A stretch of 52,433 nt of DNA from Escherichia virus TH23. The number at the start of each line of letters is the position of its first letter. The stretch's first letter is position 1. Position numbers and translations under genes: made by a program. Location of the stretch: the sequence record MT446397.1. One strand, given 5' to 3'. Under the pieces are notes generated by a model. It was not told where the DNA came from. It did no database searches and saw only the letters and a list, made by a program, of their open reading frames with translations. Positions 1 through 52,433 of the stretch are shown piece after piece.

Positions 1-433
1 CGTGCTCTGATTGCCTTTGACCTTGACCCACTACCTAACTTGGTGTTGATTGAAAGCCGATAGGCTATAGGAAAAAGTTGGGGTAGGGACCGTATTTAAG
101 TCCGATAGGACGTTGGGCTTCCCCTCCTCGGAGATAAAATTTTAAAAATAATAATGACACAACTTCCCCCCCCCGCCACCTCAAAAATAAAATAATATCG
201 CCACAATTCTAGTCTCATTAATATTGAAACAATTCGAGTCTCATTAATTCCGTAGCAATATTTAAATTAAAAAAAAAATTATATAAAATTTTTATAACAT
301 AGTCGGGCTTCTGTTCGAACAAATTTCGGCTAGATACAGCTGACCGATTGTGAACGAGTCTATGTCCAGATACAGTTGACCGATCATTTACCATTTGGTT
401 TGAACTTTACGCATTCCTAATATTACTTTAAAT
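1..433. repeat. Direct terminal repeat, left copy (equals 52000..52433 except poly-C run of 9 vs 10)
   Basis: Window start cgtgctctgattgcc...tattactttaaat recurs at the window end; AT-rich, contains poly-C, poly-A and short internal direct repeats. True repeat may extend beyond the window edges. Confidence 0.85.
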
Positions 434-565
434 ATTGTAGCAATATTGGGAATAAGTAATATTGAAAACTTACTTATTTTATTCTAGCTCAAAGAGAAAC
501 GACGCTAACGCATCGAATCTCTTCTCACATATTAACTGACAAACGTCAGCCTTCACCATACCCAA

Positions 566-3134: not shown

Positions 3135-4467
3135 ACCATGTTCCGTTCATATATTTCTGCAATTTACGACGACCAACGTAGTCAATAAATTCATCAGAAG
3201 TTGTGTTATAGCACGATGTAATGACCCAACCAGATTCATCGCGGTAGCCAGGGCCACGCCATGCAGCAGTTTCTTGGTAGGATGCTAAACGAATGTCACT
3301 CATGAAATAGGCATTGACCCAATTCTCTCGTGCAAATCGGAAAGGACCGCCATTACCAGTGTAGTCGATGTTACCATCAAGGCCGAACATCCAGTTATGT
3401 ACTGCTCCGTCATCGCTTCGGCGTGAAATTACAGGACTTGAGAAGTCCGATGTTCTGGTGTATGCACCAAAGGAAATCCAAGAGCCATATCCATAACCAG
3501 TTGTGATTGTGTTCAATGTTGCAAGAGGAACCCAGGAATCTGGGCCAACTTCACAACTGTACACACCATAAGGAACGTTGCCATCTGCCTCTTGTCCCCA
3601 GCCACGACCCCAAGTTATGCCGCGATATTGACCAAGCAAGTGGAGCTTAAAGTCTTGACCAGTGCCAAGTAATTTAAGTTGGTTGTACCCTTCTGCGATA
3701 AGACGTGCAGTGAAGTCTAAACCAGAGTTTGCATAGTGGAAGTCAATAAACGGCGTATTGTTATACAACTCTATTGCAGCAACTTCTGTGGTGCGGTCAC
3801 GCTGCAAGACTCGTGCAAGCTCTCTCCAGTTGGCCCAATTCTGCGAGGCATCTAGTGTACGACTTCGAACCCAGACGTTGCCATAGATTGAAGTATAGCG
3901 TTGCTGAACATTATACGCAGATGGAAGAACTTCCAAAGTACCAGCCATTGCTGCCGGATAGCCGCCAGCAGAGCCAGCAACAGCATCAGACTCTTGATAG
4001 TAGATACCAACATCTGACGCACCTGTAAGCAGGTTAATGTTCATGTTTGAGGCATTCTTACAAGTCATTACAGCATGTGCTGTGTACACCCTGCTACCAG
4101 ATGTGCCTTGCGAGTAGTACATAATCGGAGGCCGTGCTGCGTTACCATGTGTTACCAAGATTGAAGCATTGCTGTTATCAGACACGCCAAGAACAGTAAT
4201 GATTACATACGCACCGCTTACAGAAGATAAGTCCCACTTCTGCAACTCTGGGGGAACGTTGACAGCAGAGTTCATCTCAACGTAGAGAACTTCACCATTT
4301 ACAAAAGTGTATGTATTGAAGTTGAAGTTTCTTACAAATGCCGTGGTTGGAATCTGGGCATTCTTTTGTCCAACAGTGATTACCTCACCACGAGCAGTAC
4401 CTGCATTTAAGAATGCAGCAGACTTTAAGGCGGCAACTAAGCCGCCAAATGACCAACCTTTAGCCAT
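3115..4467 (-). CDS. Tail fibre / receptor-binding protein (distal)
   Basis: 450 aa, G/S/T/N-rich, last of three consecutive fibre-like ORFs. Confidence 0.4.
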   Translation of the reverse strand: MAKGWSFGGLVAALKSAAFLNAGTARGEVITVGQKNAQIPTTAFVRNFNFNTYTFVNGEVLYVEMNSAVNVPPELQKWDLSSVSGAYVIITVLGVSDNSNASILVTHGNAARPPIMYYSQGTSGSRVYTAHAVMTCKNASNMNINLLTGASDVGIYYQESDAVAGSAGGYPAAMAGTLEVLPSAYNVQQRYTSIYGNVWVRSRTLDASQNWANWRELARVLQRDRTTEVAAIELYNNTPFIDFHYANSGLDFTARLIAEGYNQLKLLGTGQDFKLHLLGQYRGITWGRGWGQEADGNVPYGVYSCEVGPDSWVPLATLNTITTGYGYGSWISFGAYTRTSDFSSPVISRRSDDGAVHNWMFGLDGNIDYTGNGGPFRFARENWVNAYFMSDIRLASYQETAAWRGPGYRDESGWVITSCYNTTSDEFIDYVGRRKLQKYMNGTWYDSYSV

Positions 4468-24791: not shown

Positions 24792-26837
24792 TTACATCCA
24801 TGCCGAGTAGTTGGCACTTGGGCCGGAGAATTCGATTGCAACCATATCTGAAACGTTATCGACACAATCGTCGTGTCCAGTACCACTACCCAAAGAAGTG
24901 AATCCAAGTATTTCACGTCTAACGTGGTCAATGTGTTCATGACCAGCAGGGAAGAATATCCTCTTTTGAGAGAAATATGGGATTGCGTTAAGGAATCGAG
25001 TTACCTTGTCATTACCGTTAATGCCATCGCGAGGCAGTGGTAAGACTCGGACACTCCCATCTCTAATAAATTGTTGGTTCAAGAACTGTCCAGCAGACTT
25101 ATCTTCCATGTACAAAGCACGAGGAATGCAGCCTACATATTTCAAATCCAACTTATTGCATTTATTCCAGAAGTCGATAATAGCAGTCTTGAGTTCTGGA
25201 GTTTCAAACTTACCGAGCATGATATCTAAACAATAAACATCACGCTCTTTAGTCACGCCCCAATGCTTAAGGACCGAATAGTCAGAATAAGACTTGGCAG
25301 TAGATGCCGTGTCAGCAGTAATGAAACTTCTAACTATGCGACTTCTGTCGAAAGCGTCTGGCTCATACTCTTGCCACCAATCTTCTTTAACAAGGCCATG
25401 ACCTTGGGCAGACGGGTCGCCAGCATACTGTGAGTTGTATGTGTATGGGTTGGACTCCTTCATTGCCTCCAAAGATTCTAAACTCTTACGTGAGGGCCAC
25501 AATGCAGACTTCTCTTCTTTCCTGTTCAAATCATAGAGAATAGGGATAGCATGAGTGTAGTTCTGCTTCTTAATTAATTTGTCGTACCACTGAGCACTGC
25601 CAACACCTTTCTCAATAATCGCTGGGATGTTGAGATAATGATATTTATCAGAGGAACCACCACGGAGTATATAGCCAACTAAATCTTGGTCATGAACTCG
25701 CTGCATGATGATAACCATTGGAGTACGAGAGCACTTAATTTGGTTTCCACGAGAATCGGTTATGCACCCATCATTGGCAAGACGGGACATAAAGGTGTTA
25801 TCAAAGCGGTCGTTGATTTCTGCTCGAACTGTGTCAGAGTAGGCATCCTTAGGTTTGATAACGTCATCCACCACAAAGCAACCAGAGTAGTTTGCAACAA
25901 GAAGTCCAGCACCTTTACCAGTTAATTTACCACCAGTAGGTACTGCGTGCATAACTCCAGCTTTGGTCGTACCCCAGCGTTCAAGGGAACGTTTGTTGGG
26001 GTCGATTCTCACCTTTGGGAATATGCGTTGGAATAGTGGGTCCAGCATTACTGCGCGGATGTAACCGCTCGATTCCAATACAACGTCTTCTGCATAGGAG
26101 GTGATGATGTTGTGGCTTGATTCATTGTGGCAAAATGAATACAGTGGTAGTGCAATACTCATAAGCTGAGTCTTGGAATGTCGTGGTGGAATGGTGACAA
26201 TTAGTCGGTCAATCTCACCGTCAACAACTTTCTGACCTACTTTGAATATTACATCGTGAAAGTCTTGAGACTGGAATGGGAATCCCATTTGAATATGGAA
26301 CTGCCATTTACCAAATGCTTCAAAACTCTTCATCAAAACTTTACGGACTTGTTCTGCAACCTTGGCTGGGATTACAGATGGGTCAACGTTGTGTGGGTCA
26401 TAAAGGATTTTATCGACAAGCTCTTGAGTATTGTCGTGTTCAGAAGTTGGCTCTTCTAAAGTCGAACCAGCTACACGGTCTGATACCCCAGCTTGGATTC
26501 CTTTCTTCAACTCGTCGGCATACGCAGTTGAATCTTTCTTATCGCCAGAGCGAAGGCGCTCAAGTTGTGCTCGGAAAACGGAACGCAACACAGCATCGTT
26601 TTCCAGACCCTGGCCTTCTAACTCTGCTTGAATTTGTTCTTCATAGCTGTCAACTATCGCAGAGTTTTCTGAAATATATCGACGGAGCAATGGCAAAGAT
26701 AGAATGCAGAATCTTTCTCTTGAGACTTTTAATACGTCACCGTAGTGTTTGGCAAGATACGAGGCTACTGTATCATTAAACTCCGGTCCGAGGTCATCAG
26801 TCTTTGACATTGATTCGTTCTCTTTGGTTTTAATCAC
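24792..26837 (-). CDS. Terminase large subunit
   Basis: 681 aa; Walker A-like VTIPPRHSKTQL, acidic FVVDDV, C-terminal nuclease-like GTGHDDCVD; GTG start with roughly 100-aa N-terminal extension, so the true start may be downstream. Confidence 0.7.
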   Translation of the reverse strand: MIKTKENESMSKTDDLGPEFNDTVASYLAKHYGDVLKVSRERFCILSLPLLRRYISENSAIVDSYEEQIQAELEGQGLENDAVLRSVFRAQLERLRSGDKKDSTAYADELKKGIQAGVSDRVAGSTLEEPTSEHDNTQELVDKILYDPHNVDPSVIPAKVAEQVRKVLMKSFEAFGKWQFHIQMGFPFQSQDFHDVIFKVGQKVVDGEIDRLIVTIPPRHSKTQLMSIALPLYSFCHNESSHNIITSYAEDVVLESSGYIRAVMLDPLFQRIFPKVRIDPNKRSLERWGTTKAGVMHAVPTGGKLTGKGAGLLVANYSGCFVVDDVIKPKDAYSDTVRAEINDRFDNTFMSRLANDGCITDSRGNQIKCSRTPMVIIMQRVHDQDLVGYILRGGSSDKYHYLNIPAIIEKGVGSAQWYDKLIKKQNYTHAIPILYDLNRKEEKSALWPSRKSLESLEAMKESNPYTYNSQYAGDPSAQGHGLVKEDWWQEYEPDAFDRSRIVRSFITADTASTAKSYSDYSVLKHWGVTKERDVYCLDIMLGKFETPELKTAIIDFWNKCNKLDLKYVGCIPRALYMEDKSAGQFLNQQFIRDGSVRVLPLPRDGINGNDKVTRFLNAIPYFSQKRIFFPAGHEHIDHVRREILGFTSLGSGTGHDDCVDNVSDMVAIEFSGPSANYSAWM

Positions 26838-27015
26838 AATCCACTAATGGCTGAGTTTGCACGGGATTGATGCGAATGATGTTGCCCAAACTAGAATCAG
26901 CTTTTAAAATGAGCCGATTTAGCGGCATGAATGAATCACAGATAGGACATTGTTGGGTGATAAAATCATCCTCTGCCACTTCGTAATGGCAGTTACTACA
27001 TTGAATTGTGCGCAT
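26830..27015 (-). CDS. Small zinc-ribbon protein
   Basis: 61 aa with CSNC...CPIC. Confidence 0.3.
   Translation of the reverse strand: MRTIQCSNCHYEVAEDDFITQQCPICDSFMPLNRLILKADSSLGNIIRINPVQTQPLVDCD
26833..26850 (-). promoter_or_regulatory. Conserved intergenic motif copy (candidate phage promoter), upstream of the terminase gene
   Basis: Minus strand CCATTAGTGGATTGTGAT; matches the family consensus ACATTAGTTGGATGTGA. Confidence 0.3.
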
Positions 27016-27069
27016 AAGCGACTCCGAATAAGATAGGAGGCCAGATAGCCTCCCTATTATGCGTGCCGC

Positions 27070-27399
27070 TTAATATTTAATATCGCTCCAATCCATATCT
27101 TTAAAGAAATCTTCAAAATACTGCTGGGTAGAACCAACAACCACCACAATCTTAAATGGCAGTATCAGCGGCTTTACAGCCGACATTAAATCTTCGCGCC
27201 CACGCTTGATACGTTCGACGTTCTTGATTGTATTTTCACCACGAGGAAGCATGAAAACGATAACATCCGCACCTGTTTCATTGCGCGTTGCAAGTGCACG
27301 GGTGAGATAAGTACCACCGCCAGTTGAAGTGACGGTGGATTTCAAATATGCAAACTTGACTTTGCGATTATTTACAACAACAGGTGAGGACAGTTTCAT
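27070..27399 (-). CDS. Hypothetical protein
   Basis: 109-aa ORF with Shine-Dalgarno, between dUTPase and terminase. Confidence 0.3.
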   Translation of the reverse strand: MKLSSPVVVNNRKVKFAYLKSTVTSTGGGTYLTRALATRNETGADVIVFMLPRGENTIKNVERIKRGREDLMSAVKPLILPFKIVVVVGSTQQYFEDFFKDMDWSDIKY

Positions 27400-27428
27400 T
27401 CAGATAGGTTCCAAATAGTTACTAATTA

Positions 27429-27881
27429 CTAAACTCGTCCAGTTGAACCAAACCCACCTTCACCACGAACAGTGGAATTTAAGTGGTCAACTTCAACGAA
27501 ATGGTGTTGAGTAGCTTTACTAACTTGCACTTGACAAACACGTTCGCCTGGTTGAATAACAAAGGCTGTGTCCGAGTCGTTGTGCAGCTTAACCATAAGA
27601 TTACCGCGATAGTCGGAATCCAGAATGCCTGTGCAGTTTGCAAGGCGAATACCAGACTTAAAGCCGTGACCAGAACGGCTATGCACTTTGAGTTCGTATC
27701 CAATTGGTACTTCGAACTGGAGGCCAGTATCGACAACAACAGAAGAGCCGGGATTGATAACAACAGTGGTATCGGATACAGTACAAACATCAGCAGCAGC
27801 AGCGCCAGCTGTAGCATACACAGGTAATTTCGCATTAGGGTGTACTCGTTTAACTGCAACAACTTGGGTCATACAAGACAT
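27429..27881 (-). CDS. dut: dUTPase (trimeric Dut family)
   Basis: 150 aa; LPVYAT.GAAA.D, SRSG, GILDSDYRGNLMV, IQPGERVCQ and C-terminal RGEGGFGSTGR motifs match E. coli Dut as recalled. Confidence 0.88.
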   Translation of the reverse strand: MSCMTQVVAVKRVHPNAKLPVYATAGAAAADVCTVSDTTVVINPGSSVVVDTGLQFEVPIGYELKVHSRSGHGFKSGIRLANCTGILDSDYRGNLMVKLHNDSDTAFVIQPGERVCQVQVSKATQHHFVEVDHLNSTVRGEGGFGSTGRV

Positions 27882-48252: not shown

Positions 48253-48288
48253 TATAGCTCCGAAGTTGGAGGGTTACTCCCCCCCATA

Positions 48289-48859: not shown

Positions 48860-49715
48860 CGAATTTTGTCACAATTAAACATGCGTCATTAATTACAGGT
48901 TTACTCCCACCTTGAATGTATTTGGCACATTAAGATTGGAGCAAGCAGGTACGGAAAACCGACCATGTACAGCATAATAAAACTAATTAAATAAAGGGTT
49001 TTATCCCAATATTGTCACAATATTTACATGCGATGATAAAGCCTTCGCTTGGCTGGAAGCCAGTATTCATGCGGGTTGCAAGAATATTGGGTCAATACTG
49101 ATACAGCTATTACATGTGAAATTGGCACAAATACTGTTACAAAATTAACATGCCGGATTGGTAGACAATTGTATCTTCGAGGTGATTAGTCCTCTAACAA
49201 TTCTGCCACATTCTAACATGCCAATTTGTAGCAATATTTACATGCCATACTGTGACGCAATTGTCACAATATTTGTTGCTCAAAATCGGGGCGGGCTACG
49301 GGATTAGTTTCGCGGCTTTGCTCCGACTCTTCTCTTCTTTCGAATTAAGATAGAAAGAAAGAAGCATGTCCAAAAGTTCCAGTCTTGCCAAAGTTATCTC
49401 CCGGCTTGTGGGTGGGCCTTTATAATAGGAGATGGAGCAATATTGTCGCAATTGAACATGCTTTAGTTGAAGAACAGTTTCGAATGATAATCCTACTTCA
49501 CACATGGTTGCTGGAACTTTGTCTGGCCAAAGACAGGGAGTTCAATGATTGCCACATCATTACAACGCTGTGTGTTTAGTTGACATGCTGAAATGTTTCT
49601 AGAATGATTTCAACATGACATGCGGAATACTTCTCCGTATTCTGTTACTTCACATCCAACTAATGTCGAATATTGAAACAATATTACATGCAGCAATATT
49701 GCTTGAATATTGGGA
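48860..49715. repeat. Cluster of at least nine degenerate copies of an AT-rich 20-mer (consensus TTGTCACAATATTTACATGC), mostly one orientation, one palindromic unit TGTGACgcaattGTCACA
   Basis: Copies near 48866, 49011, 49122, 49201, 49225, 49249-49280, 49441, 49550 and 49676; related copies near 199-270 and 435-470. Confidence 0.6.
49649..49665 (-). promoter_or_regulatory. Conserved intergenic motif copy (candidate phage promoter)
   Basis: Minus strand CATTAGTTGGATGTGAA, about 75 nt downstream of the RNA polymerase terminator. Confidence 0.35.
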
Positions 49716-49737
49716 ATTAAAGGATTTAATTAATAAA

Positions 49738-49774
49738 GAATAAAGAAAGGGCCATCACCTTTCGATGACAGCCC
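49738..49774 (-). terminator. Intrinsic terminator immediately downstream of the RNA polymerase gene
   Basis: Minus strand: stop codon, gaaaca, GGGCUGUCAUC-GAAA-GGUGAUGGCCC (about 11-bp stem, GNRA loop), then UUUCUUUAUUC. Confidence 0.55.
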
Positions 49775-49782
49775 TGTTTCTC

Positions 49783-51897
49783 TTATTGACAGAAGTAGTA
49801 AGCGTGTTCGCTCATCAGAAGCTCTTCGGTTACGATGTTCTCATGATACATCTGAATGCCACCAAGTTGCTTAGACAGATTCTCGAATTGATTGTTGGTT
49901 ACGAAGATTTCAACATATGCTGCACGAATAACTTCCATCATTTTAGGAGCATCAGCTAAGCAGCAACGGAAACAATCATGGATTGAAGTAAAGCCACGAA
50001 GACCAGCTTCTTTAGCTTTGACTGCAACAGTACGAGCAACCAATGCGTCAATACCTTGAATGTAGTTAACAACGAAGGTACGTTTGAATTCCTCTTTAGT
50101 TGGATTGGACTCACGAATGGTCCAAGGCTTATTCTCCTGAATCTGACCAAAGATGACACGAGTTTGAGAGTCAACACGAATGCTGAATGCATCACAAACA
50201 TCACGAGATGGGAAGCAAGGTTTCATTACAACTTGACCATCAGTGTGCTTATATGTGATGTACTCTTTGTTGAGTTCAACACAACGAGCAAATGCAGCAT
50301 CAGCAGCTTTCTCGATGAACATGTTAATCTTAGCACCCAATGCGTTATGGATTGCTTCAACACAAAGTTCAGCAAATGCTTCGGCTTTCTCCATAGGAAT
50401 CTGGAGAGCTTCTGTCATGTATGCGGTGAAATCAGAAGAACCAGTCAATGCAGCTTTACCACCACCATATTGGATAGCCATGTATGGAGTTTTGATAAAC
50501 TTACGACCAGCTTTCGGATTCAAGAATTCATCCATAATTTCAGCGGATGGTTTCATTGAAGAACGGTCAAGCAACTTCAACAGTTCACGAAGAGATAACT
50601 GGTATGGGTCAGATGCTTTAGTCTCAGAATCAACCAGACCTGTAGCACGAGCCATTTCCATGTTACCAGCAATGAATGCCAAGTATTGGGTACCAGAACA
50701 TTTAGCATCTAAGCCAAAGCCTACACGAGAATCACACTCACCTGTAGTCTCAAACTTGAACCAATCCAGAGCCAGACGAACATAAGTGAATGGCTTAGAA
50801 GGACGCTCACCTTTAGGCATGTTCAGCATACGAGCCAAAGAACCAGCAGGATTCTGTGCAACATAAGTTAAACGTTTTGCAGAAGTCCAGTCTCCACCAG
50901 CAATATCTTCCAGCTCAAGCATGAACATGTTGTATGCCAGAGTTGTTGAGCCATCATCATTAAACTTGCTCACAGTGTTCTCAACATTGTGGGAATACAG
51001 GCAACGAGCAAAGTCGGATGATTGTGGGTTAGGACCAGCACATGCTACATGATACAAACGACCACGGTTATCAGCAAAGTAGTCAGAGAACAGAGTGTCC
51101 TGCCCAACCATTGCTACAGCATTGTTCCAAACATGGAGTTCAGTCTGGATTGCTTCTGGCATCTGTAAGCCACCAAAGGTACGTTGTTCTAACATGGAAG
51201 AGATAACCTTAACCATTGTTGCATCAACGTGATATTCAGTATCTTGCAGGAATTCGATTGCAGCTTTCAGAGTCTTGGATGGCTTAACTTTGCCACCTTT
51301 AACGAAAGGCTTGCGACGAGATTCAGTTGTTACACGCTCAGTGAATGGAACTGAGGTATCTTTGGTTGTAACCAGCTCAACCCATGCATCAGTCATCTGG
51401 AACGATTTGTCCTCGTTCATGGTGATGAAACCGAAGTGCTTAGCTAAACCAATGAGGTTGATAGCTGGGTCAACATAGTGCATTGCTTTCAGGTCGTTGT
51501 TATAACGGTTGGCATCAGCAATAGAAGCAGAAGCCAGCTCGACCATTGCAATGGCTGGGACAACATCATCACGAGTGAATGACGTCATCATCTTGAAGAT
51601 TGCAAGAGCAGCAATAGCACAGGTCTGAGGCTGCATGTAATTCTGTTTCTCTTTGGCACGGTATACCAGAGCCGTGATAGCAGGGACAACGGATTTGATA
51701 GTTTGAGTTGAGATAGTTGTCATTTTGCGAGTCTCCAAGTTAGTTTCGGTTTTAGTTTCGGATTGTGTAGCAGCAGTGATTTCGTCAACCATTTGGTTGC
51801 AACGGTCCATCGTATCAAGCACGTCTTTCCAACCGTGGCCTTCTTCTTTTAAGCGAGCGCCATCAGCAGCCAGTGCGCGATATTCTTCGTTAGTCAT
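49783..51897 (-). CDS. Single-subunit T7-like DNA-dependent RNA polymerase (small, 704 aa)
   Basis: Motif A FGLDAKCSGTQYLAF (T7 FDGSCSGIQHF), motif B RKFIKTPYMAIQYGGG (T7 RSVTKRSVMTLAYGS), motif C FTSIHDCF...ADAPKM (T7 ALIHDSF...ADAANL); GGAG Shine-Dalgarno. Confidence 0.85.
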   Translation of the reverse strand: MTNEEYRALAADGARLKEEGHGWKDVLDTMDRCNQMVDEITAATQSETKTETNLETRKMTTISTQTIKSVVPAITALVYRAKEKQNYMQPQTCAIAALAIFKMMTSFTRDDVVPAIAMVELASASIADANRYNNDLKAMHYVDPAINLIGLAKHFGFITMNEDKSFQMTDAWVELVTTKDTSVPFTERVTTESRRKPFVKGGKVKPSKTLKAAIEFLQDTEYHVDATMVKVISSMLEQRTFGGLQMPEAIQTELHVWNNAVAMVGQDTLFSDYFADNRGRLYHVACAGPNPQSSDFARCLYSHNVENTVSKFNDDGSTTLAYNMFMLELEDIAGGDWTSAKRLTYVAQNPAGSLARMLNMPKGERPSKPFTYVRLALDWFKFETTGECDSRVGFGLDAKCSGTQYLAFIAGNMEMARATGLVDSETKASDPYQLSLRELLKLLDRSSMKPSAEIMDEFLNPKAGRKFIKTPYMAIQYGGGKAALTGSSDFTAYMTEALQIPMEKAEAFAELCVEAIHNALGAKINMFIEKAADAAFARCVELNKEYITYKHTDGQVVMKPCFPSRDVCDAFSIRVDSQTRVIFGQIQENKPWTIRESNPTKEEFKRTFVVNYIQGIDALVARTVAVKAKEAGLRGFTSIHDCFRCCLADAPKMMEVIRAAYVEIFVTNNQFENLSKQLGGIQMYHENIVTEELLMSEHAYYFCQ

Positions 51898-51959
51898 GAT
51901 AAGTCTCCAATTGATTATGATTTAACTGAAACGGATTAGACTTGCGTAGCCTATTCATA

Positions 51960-51977
51960 ATCACAACCAACTAATGG
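51960..51977 (-). promoter_or_regulatory. Conserved intergenic motif copy (candidate promoter), upstream of the RNA polymerase gene
   Basis: Minus strand CCATTAGTTGGTTGTGAT, about 70 nt upstream of the polymerase ATG. Confidence 0.3.
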
Positions 51978-51999
51978 TAAGGCTAGCTCGTTACAACAG

Positions 52000-52433
52000 C
52001 GTGCTCTGATTGCCTTTGACCTTGACCCACTACCTAACTTGGTGTTGATTGAAAGCCGATAGGCTATAGGAAAAAGTTGGGGTAGGGACCGTATTTAAGT
52101 CCGATAGGACGTTGGGCTTCCCCTCCTCGGAGATAAAATTTTAAAAATAATAATGACACAACTTCCCCCCCCCCGCCACCTCAAAAATAAAATAATATCG
52201 CCACAATTCTAGTCTCATTAATATTGAAACAATTCGAGTCTCATTAATTCCGTAGCAATATTTAAATTAAAAAAAAAATTATATAAAATTTTTATAACAT
52301 AGTCGGGCTTCTGTTCGAACAAATTTCGGCTAGATACAGCTGACCGATTGTGAACGAGTCTATGTCCAGATACAGTTGACCGATCATTTACCATTTGGTT
52401 TGAACTTTACGCATTCCTAATATTACTTTAAAT
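52000..52433. repeat. Direct terminal repeat, right copy
   Basis: Matches 1..433 with one extra C in the poly-C run. Confidence 0.85.

Follow-up and report, generated by a model that had tools for sequence, protein, structure and literature searches.

The 433-bp repeat at the ends of the Escherichia virus TH23 record is best explained as an untrimmed assembly overlap beside a predicted Chaseviridae terminus

The window, by which we mean the whole stretch of DNA analysed here, is the 52,433-bp record MT446397.1 of Escherichia virus TH23 (GC content 44.0%). All of its ORFs that were matched to known genes lie on the minus strand. The first early gene, encoding a T7-like RNA polymerase, was found at 49783-51897 (minus strand; Pfam PF00940 and the annotations of relatives), and nrdB, encoding the small chain of ribonucleotide reductase, is the last gene of the genome (566-1684, minus strand; Pfam PF00268, E = 7e-50). 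The large terminase gene lies at 24792-26837, where Terminase_6C was the only Pfam match. Together with this family, Pfam matches included RNA_pol and portal, and tail sheath and baseplate genes are annotated in the matching records. Over 19.6 kb, the window shows 100% identity with Escherichia viruses TH33 and TH28; identity is 89-95% with MLP1, with the PYps phages (PYps3T) and with PO103-1. The phage is a phiEcoM-GJ1-like myovirus of the Chaseviridae, as seen from its genome size (in the family range of 52-56 kb), its unidirectional genes, its T7-like RNA polymerase and its myovirus genes.

Near the RNA polymerase gene, two promoter motifs were located on the minus strand: a phage-promoter-like motif, CATTAGTTGGTTGTGA, at 51961-51976, upstream of the gene, and phage promoter 1, CATTAGTTGGATGTGA, at 49650-49665. 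Over the whole window, the phiEcoM-GJ1-type promoter consensus CATTAGTTGGWTGTGA gave 13 matches at no more than 3 mismatches, compared to 1.5 expected, and 12 of the 13 were on the coding strand. Minus-strand sites were found at 51961, 49650, 48799, 45557, 41635, 41495, 39538, 31847 and 26834, and one match immediately precedes the RNA polymerase gene itself. The segment of about 600 bp that follows the RNA polymerase terminator, 49100-49700, is almost gene-free and highly conserved in five aligned relatives; GCATGT and AATATTG motifs are frequent in it, and it holds the right boundary predicted below for the direct terminal repeat (DTR). The related phage phiEcoM-GJ1 reportedly has an intron-containing tRNA. 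In the window, ARAGORN called a tRNA-like gene of undetermined anticodon at 38081-38150 (minus strand), and an Rfam scan of the whole window gave no matches at gathering thresholds, at this gene or elsewhere; 0 tRNAs are listed in the TH23 announcement.

The two ends of the window match. Positions 1-433 align end to end with 52000-52433, and one indel is the only difference: the left copy has C9 at 166-174, and the right copy, which is 434 nt long, has C10 at 52165-52174. This alignment confirmed the first-pass annotation, in which the ends had been described as the same except for a poly-C of 9 versus 10. Near-identity of two ends over 433 nt cannot be due to chance. Unlike the two unequal copies found here, the DTR copies in the Y2, PM1, JL1 and PYps23T records show 0 mismatches. 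Once the duplicated 433 bp are counted once, the unique sequence of the window amounts to 52.0 kb, and on the circle so obtained the 433 bp are a single-copy part of the 667-bp non-coding region that extends from the nrdB stop to the RNA polymerase start. This intergenic region was aligned from 12 relatives. The boundary 433/434 turned out to lie inside a conserved block (CCCAATATTGCTACAAT/ATTTAAAGTAATATT, the slash marking the boundary here and below), and so did the boundary 51999/52000 (...CAGAGCACG/CTGTTGTAA...). Neither a break between features nor an end-like mark was seen in this alignment at either boundary of the repeat.

The region between nrdB and the RNA polymerase gene contains several elements that are conserved among relatives. 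After nrdB comes an intrinsic terminator (500-515, minus strand), which closes the late operon and is kept in the 12 relatives, with one substitution in 2KOFFS. A terminator scan of 1-700 and 49200-52433 found the nrdB and RNA polymerase terminators only. The motif AATATTGCTAC (AATATTGYKAC) is present at 437-447, and the 433/434 boundary falls within its conserved block; it recurs at 252-262, 49014-49024, 49228-49238 and 49263-49273. In total, 6 matches to this motif were counted, compared to 0.21 expected, all of them on the minus (coding) strand and only in non-coding early or intergenic DNA, and the motif may be a regulatory site.

Two repeat pairs lie further inside. An 18-nt pair had been reported at 332-349 (AGATACAGCTGACCGATT) and 368-385 (AGATACAGTTGACCGATC); these coordinates proved correct, and 16 of the 18 positions are identical. 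The conserved repeat contained in it, TCGGTCARCTGTATCT (332-347 and 368-383, minus strand), is present as a pair in 12/12 aligned relatives. Repeats of this type are confined to 332-385 within the window, where 0.72 chance matches were expected at no more than 3 mismatches. The TCGGTCARCTGTATCT pair is a candidate for protein-binding sites, and could serve as a recognition element for packaging or replication. The second pair, of 12 nt, had been placed at 221-232 and 246-257, where we found unrelated sequence; the true 12-mers, AGTCTCATTAAT, are at 211-222 and 237-248, and are the cores of two 26-nt tandem units (205-256, minus strand) of which relatives have 2-3. In the phiEcoM-GJ1 record, a putative sigma-70 promoter is annotated in the homologous 26-nt unit, and the tandem units may thus be a putative cluster of early host sigma-70 promoters. 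This assignment rests on the phiEcoM-GJ1 annotation and on conservation, since a strict sigma-70 scan of 1-700 and 49200-52433 found no minus-strand promoter in the 433 bp.

The remaining elements are palindromes and homopolymers. Two CCGATAGG palindromes were found, at 55-66 and at 100-111. The latter, a dyad of sequence GTCCTATCGGAC (minus strand; equivalent to 52099-52110), lies within a block, some 60 nt long, with hardly any variation among 12 relatives; the former, AGCCTATCGGCT (minus strand), has the same TATC centre. Folding of the dyads, of the inverted repeat at the right boundary discussed below and of the 16-nt pair was no more stable than that of shuffled sequences (z from -0.7 to +0.3). 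Given the absence of significant hairpins and of a minus-strand promoter in the strict scan, the functional labels of the control-region elements are putative. The poly-A tract reported earlier was recovered as A10 at 269-278, within a very AT-rich stretch, and the TH25 contig is interrupted over the equivalent of 249-304. The poly-C tract at 166-174 (poly-G on the coding strand) is of unstable length between consensus calls, four consensus copies of near-identical DNA having 9 and 10 (window), 11 (TH33) and 12 (TH28) residues. It is a lineage-specific homopolymer, since MLP1 and EcoM1 have an interrupted G-run at this place (GGGGAGGGGG or GAGGAGGGG). Elsewhere in the genome, a second C-run differs between assemblies (C7 at 48279-48285 in the window, C8 in TH33).

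Assemblies of sister phages allowed us to ask whether the end repeat is recovered independently. According to the announcement of the TH phages, libraries were made with Nextera XT and sequenced by MiSeq (2x250) with inserts of 350-450 bp and about 55x coverage, and reads were assembled with the Geneious de novo assembler. The length of the repeat, 433 bp, is within this insert range. TH33 is 99.98-99.99% identical to the window, with few differences, mostly in homopolymers, which indicates that it is the same phage. In the TH33 assembly, the 433-bp stretch is found once, in an internal position with both flanks contiguous; the ends of that assembly overlap instead over 847 bp, equivalent to 26659-27505 of the window, with 1 mismatch and 1 indel, and this overlap reaches into the 5' end of the large terminase gene. 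TH26 has an exact end overlap of 149 bp at the equivalent of 313-459, crossing the supposed end at 433. TH25 shows no overlap of its ends, and the AT-rich stretch at the equivalent of 249-304 is missing from it. In TH28, the 433-bp stretch is again single-copy and internal, and the ends overlap imperfectly elsewhere over about 3.8 kb (1-2836 with 52073-54902, and 3214-3818 with 55217-55824; 90-96% identity); this assembly appears to be a chimera or a mixture of two related phages. The 433-bp repeat was thus not recovered as an end repeat in TH33, TH26 or TH25. End overlaps vary from assembly to assembly, as seen from the lengths of 433 bp (window), 847 bp (TH33), 149 bp (TH26) and about 3.8 kb (TH28) and from their absence in TH25, and one pipeline therefore leaves end overlaps of arbitrary length and position.

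We then compared the repeat with the genome ends known in relatives. According to the ICTV profile, genomes of the Chaseviridae are linear and non-permuted, their terminal redundancy consisting of repeats of about 3 kb. For PYps23T, a DTR of 2,339 bp (copies 1-2339 and 52531-54869) was established by restriction, ligation-PCR and direct sequencing, and the same paper notes that repeats of about 2.6 kb had been described earlier for Y2 and PM1. DTRs are present as exact duplicates in the records of Y2 (2,608 bp), PM1 (2,665 bp) and JL1 (2,995 bp), and were called by PhageTerm in Mangalitsa (3,234 bp), Myduc (3,202 bp) and 4HA13 (3,120 bp). The RNA polymerase gene is inside every relative's DTR that could be located. 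These DTRs adjoin the 433-bp stretch, with no more than about 100 bp in common.

The left ends of Y2, PM1, JL1 and Mangalitsa, which belong to three genera, are within 5 nt of each other in one conserved dyad, and this dyad, GTCCTATCGGAC, is conserved exactly in the window. The cuts are CCTGTCG/GAC in Y2, CCCTATCG/GGAG in PM1, CCTAT/CGGAC in JL1 and CCTATCGGAC/TT in Mangalitsa. The symmetry of the dyad (GTCC-TATC-GGAC) is kept in PM1 by compensatory changes (CTCCC-TATC-GGGAG). On the right, JL1, Mangalitsa and PM1 have their boundaries close together at ...GAGAAGAGTC/GG, window 49325-49329, and all three share ...AGTC/G; the Y2 boundary, placed by eye only, is about 8 nt further on. In window coordinates, the JL1 and Mangalitsa termini thus map to 52098-52103 and 49325-49329, with the Y2 and PM1 left ends at the same dyad. 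No relative's terminus maps to 1/52000 or to 433/52433. We did not find a statement of the convergence of four Chaseviridae left termini on one dyad in the family literature consulted on termini. To look for independent contigs that end at this terminus, an IMG/VR scan was conducted with a 14-mer adjoining the dyad: 8/120 of the matches listed were Chaseviridae-like, all internal, and only one of the matches listed starts at the dyad terminus, a 52,401-nt contig consistent with 4HA13, whose genome had earlier been aligned to that of Mangalitsa.

The published termini of the family are not unanimous. Those of PYps23T map to 51965 (left end) and 49655 (right boundary of the DTR), in the two promoter motifs that flank the RNA polymerase gene, and both DTR boundaries are at the same position of the promoter consensus (ATTAGTTGGA/YGTGAA), which makes this phage an outlier with respect to Y2, PM1, JL1 and Mangalitsa. 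Its boundaries may be genuinely different, or may have arisen by template switching at a shared 13-nt microhomology during ligation-PCR. Taking them (49655-51965) as the family termini was considered and dropped, as the four other phages share a different site. The phiEcoM-GJ1 genome was proposed to be circularly permuted in the paper describing it, and Fifi44 was called headful by PhageTerm. None of these three alternatives turns the 433 bp into a physical repeat.

By homology with these relatives, we predict that the left terminus of the virion DNA lies in the dyad at 100-111, its first base being at about position 102, equivalent to 52101. The homologous boundaries of JL1, Mangalitsa, Y2 and PM1 would place the true DTR at 49325-52101 (minus strand). 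It would then be about 2.8 kb long (some 2,777 bp), would include the RNA polymerase gene, and would bring the virion DNA to about 54.8 kb. The 433-bp stretch would straddle the predicted left terminus, with its first 100 bp or so inside the real DTR and the remainder, including the TCGGTCARCTGTATCT pair, outside. A role of the 18-nt and 12-nt repeats in packaging or as terminase sites, suggested in the first-pass annotation, found no support; the left termini of Y2, PM1, JL1 and Mangalitsa map to the dyad at 100-111 instead, and no terminus that was mapped lies within these short repeats.

Taken together, the 433/434-bp repeat is very probably an untrimmed overlap of the ends of a de novo contig and not a physical terminal repeat. 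We infer the following behaviour of the assembler. The true, much longer terminal repeat would collapse during assembly, so that reads close into a circle; the assembler would then pass once round the map and read the same single-copy region again for about one insert length. Each copy would be a consensus of its own, called from part of the reads, and as independent calls of a hard homopolymer the two would disagree at the 9-12-nt poly-C. The stretch concerned is the control region between the last late gene, nrdB with its terminator, and the first early gene, that of the RNA polymerase, a region that carries the putative early host-promoter units, the conserved 16-nt repeat pair and, by homology, the real left terminus. 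Two readings had been offered initially for the matching ends: assembly overlap of a circular map, which the sister assemblies favour, and physical terminal redundancy of the linear genome, against which stand the 2.3-3.2 kb DTRs of the relatives. From sequence alone, a collapsed real DTR and a circular overlap are indistinguishable.

Other explanations must be weighed against an assembly overlap. The 433 bp might be a genuine short DTR of the T7 type, with virion DNA running from 1 to 52433 and with C9/C10 as a real or a sequencing difference. The repeat is indeed non-coding and AT-rich; as in T7-like genomes, it lies exactly where the late operon has ended and the early one has yet to start, and the phage encodes a T7-like RNA polymerase. 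The overlap, moreover, sits in the one large non-coding region, about 100 bp off the predicted end, a place to be expected of a real short DTR as well. In the window, TH25 and TH26, the contig ends cluster in this control region, and that three TH assemblies break there could point to a physical feature beyond low-complexity sequence. We nevertheless consider a short DTR most improbable. All measured or predicted DTRs of the family are 2.3-3.2 kb long and include the RNA polymerase gene, and the two sets of ends are impossible in one genome; neither 433-bp boundary is at a relative's mapped terminus, both being within conserved blocks; the TH26 overlap (equivalent 313-459) crosses the supposed end at 433; and TH33, from the same pipeline, has a comparable 'repeat' that reaches into the terminase gene. 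In a PhageTerm export, both copies of a DTR are one and the same string, which makes unequal copies impossible, and a DTR added by hand would likewise give two identical copies. Nextera libraries, for their part, lose the termini, so that data of this kind are unable to define them. A repeat appended by PhageTerm was considered separately and rejected on the same grounds, as the copies differ and Nextera data yield no PhageTerm termini. Headful packaging, with permuted genomes and no fixed termini, would leave the 433 bp an assembly overlap and remove the 2.8-kb DTR. It agrees with the permuted genome proposed for phiEcoM-GJ1, with the PhageTerm call for Fifi44 and with a large terminase that resembles T1-like headful enzymes and here matches Terminase_6C only; the disagreement among published family termini (promoter motifs in PYps23T, permuted in phiEcoM-GJ1, headful in Fifi44) also weighs against our main reading. 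Against it, restriction, ligation-PCR and direct sequencing support defined ends and a DTR in PYps23T, whose terminase is reported to be 97% identical to that of phiEcoM-GJ1. The exact DTRs with coinciding left ends in the Y2 and PM1 records, the four PhageTerm DTR calls in relatives and the non-permuted genomes of the ICTV profile also argue for fixed termini, and we regard headful packaging as improbable.

The difference between the two copies could also be real: the poly-C, which lies between the early promoters and the terminus, would be prone to slippage, and its varying length in the phage population would have blocked the merging of the ends. Four lengths (9, 10, 11 and 12) in near-identical DNA would fit such heterogeneity, as would the second C-run (C7 versus C8 at 48279); in addition, the imperfect overlaps of the window and TH33 were both left untrimmed, and other differences between assemblies are very few. 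Illumina consensus calling at about 25-55x, on the other hand, does not resolve runs of 9-12 C reliably. Conservation of the tract is lacking, as relatives have the interrupted GGGGAGGGGG, which argues against a function. We therefore hold real length heterogeneity to be unlikely, and it is in any case compatible with an artefact and not an alternative to it.

The assembly overlap that we prefer resembles a known class of artefact, the contig-end overlap of circular assemblies, which completeness tools read as a 'DTR' signal. As in that class, the ends are near-identical over a length on the scale of the insert, position and length vary across assemblies of the same or sister phages, and the copies differ by a consensus-level indel only. 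What differs is the place: the overlap is intergenic and beside a predicted real terminus, and so not fully arbitrary. With the long DTRs of the Chaseviridae, it has in common that the phage is a member of the family, that the left-terminus dyad is in the 433 bp and that the first 100 bp or so would be in the real DTR; the 433-bp repeat, however, is entirely intergenic, lacks the RNA polymerase gene, is too short by a factor of five to seven and has unmatched boundaries. The short exact DTRs of T7-like Autographiviridae (about 150-500 bp) are similar in size and in their non-coding nature, with host-type promoters nearby, whereas Chaseviridae are myoviruses with experimentally shown long DTRs, and the copies here are unequal. 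Neither the mapping of the relatives' termini nor the alignment pointed to a terminus at either end of the 433-bp repeat.

These results call for caution, as contig-end repeats are routinely taken to prove that a genome is complete or that it has a T7-like DTR. In the present case, three assemblies of the same phage yield three different 'terminal repeats', and the real repeat, predicted at about 2.8 kb, would be absent from the record. Taken at face value, the 433 bp would lead to a wrong assignment of the packaging type, to a genome size of 52.4 kb instead of about 54.8 kb, and to the counting of 433 bp twice where the unique sequence is 52.0 kb. The repeat is thus best explained as an ordinary issue of record quality and not as a real biological feature, and the modest interest that remains is in the terminus dyad shared by Chaseviridae. 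The termini of four relatives, from three genera, converge on this one dyad, which provides a precise and cheap test for disputed genome ends in the family. We tentatively propose a joint reading, in which the dyad GTCCTATCGGAC would be the site-specific cleavage point for the left end of the DTR, a related TCGGA-containing site at 49325 would create its right boundary, and the TCGGTCARCTGTATCT pair would be a pac-like recognition element. If this were true, a myovirus with a headful-looking large terminase would produce long, exact repeats and thereby carry its RNA polymerase gene twice.
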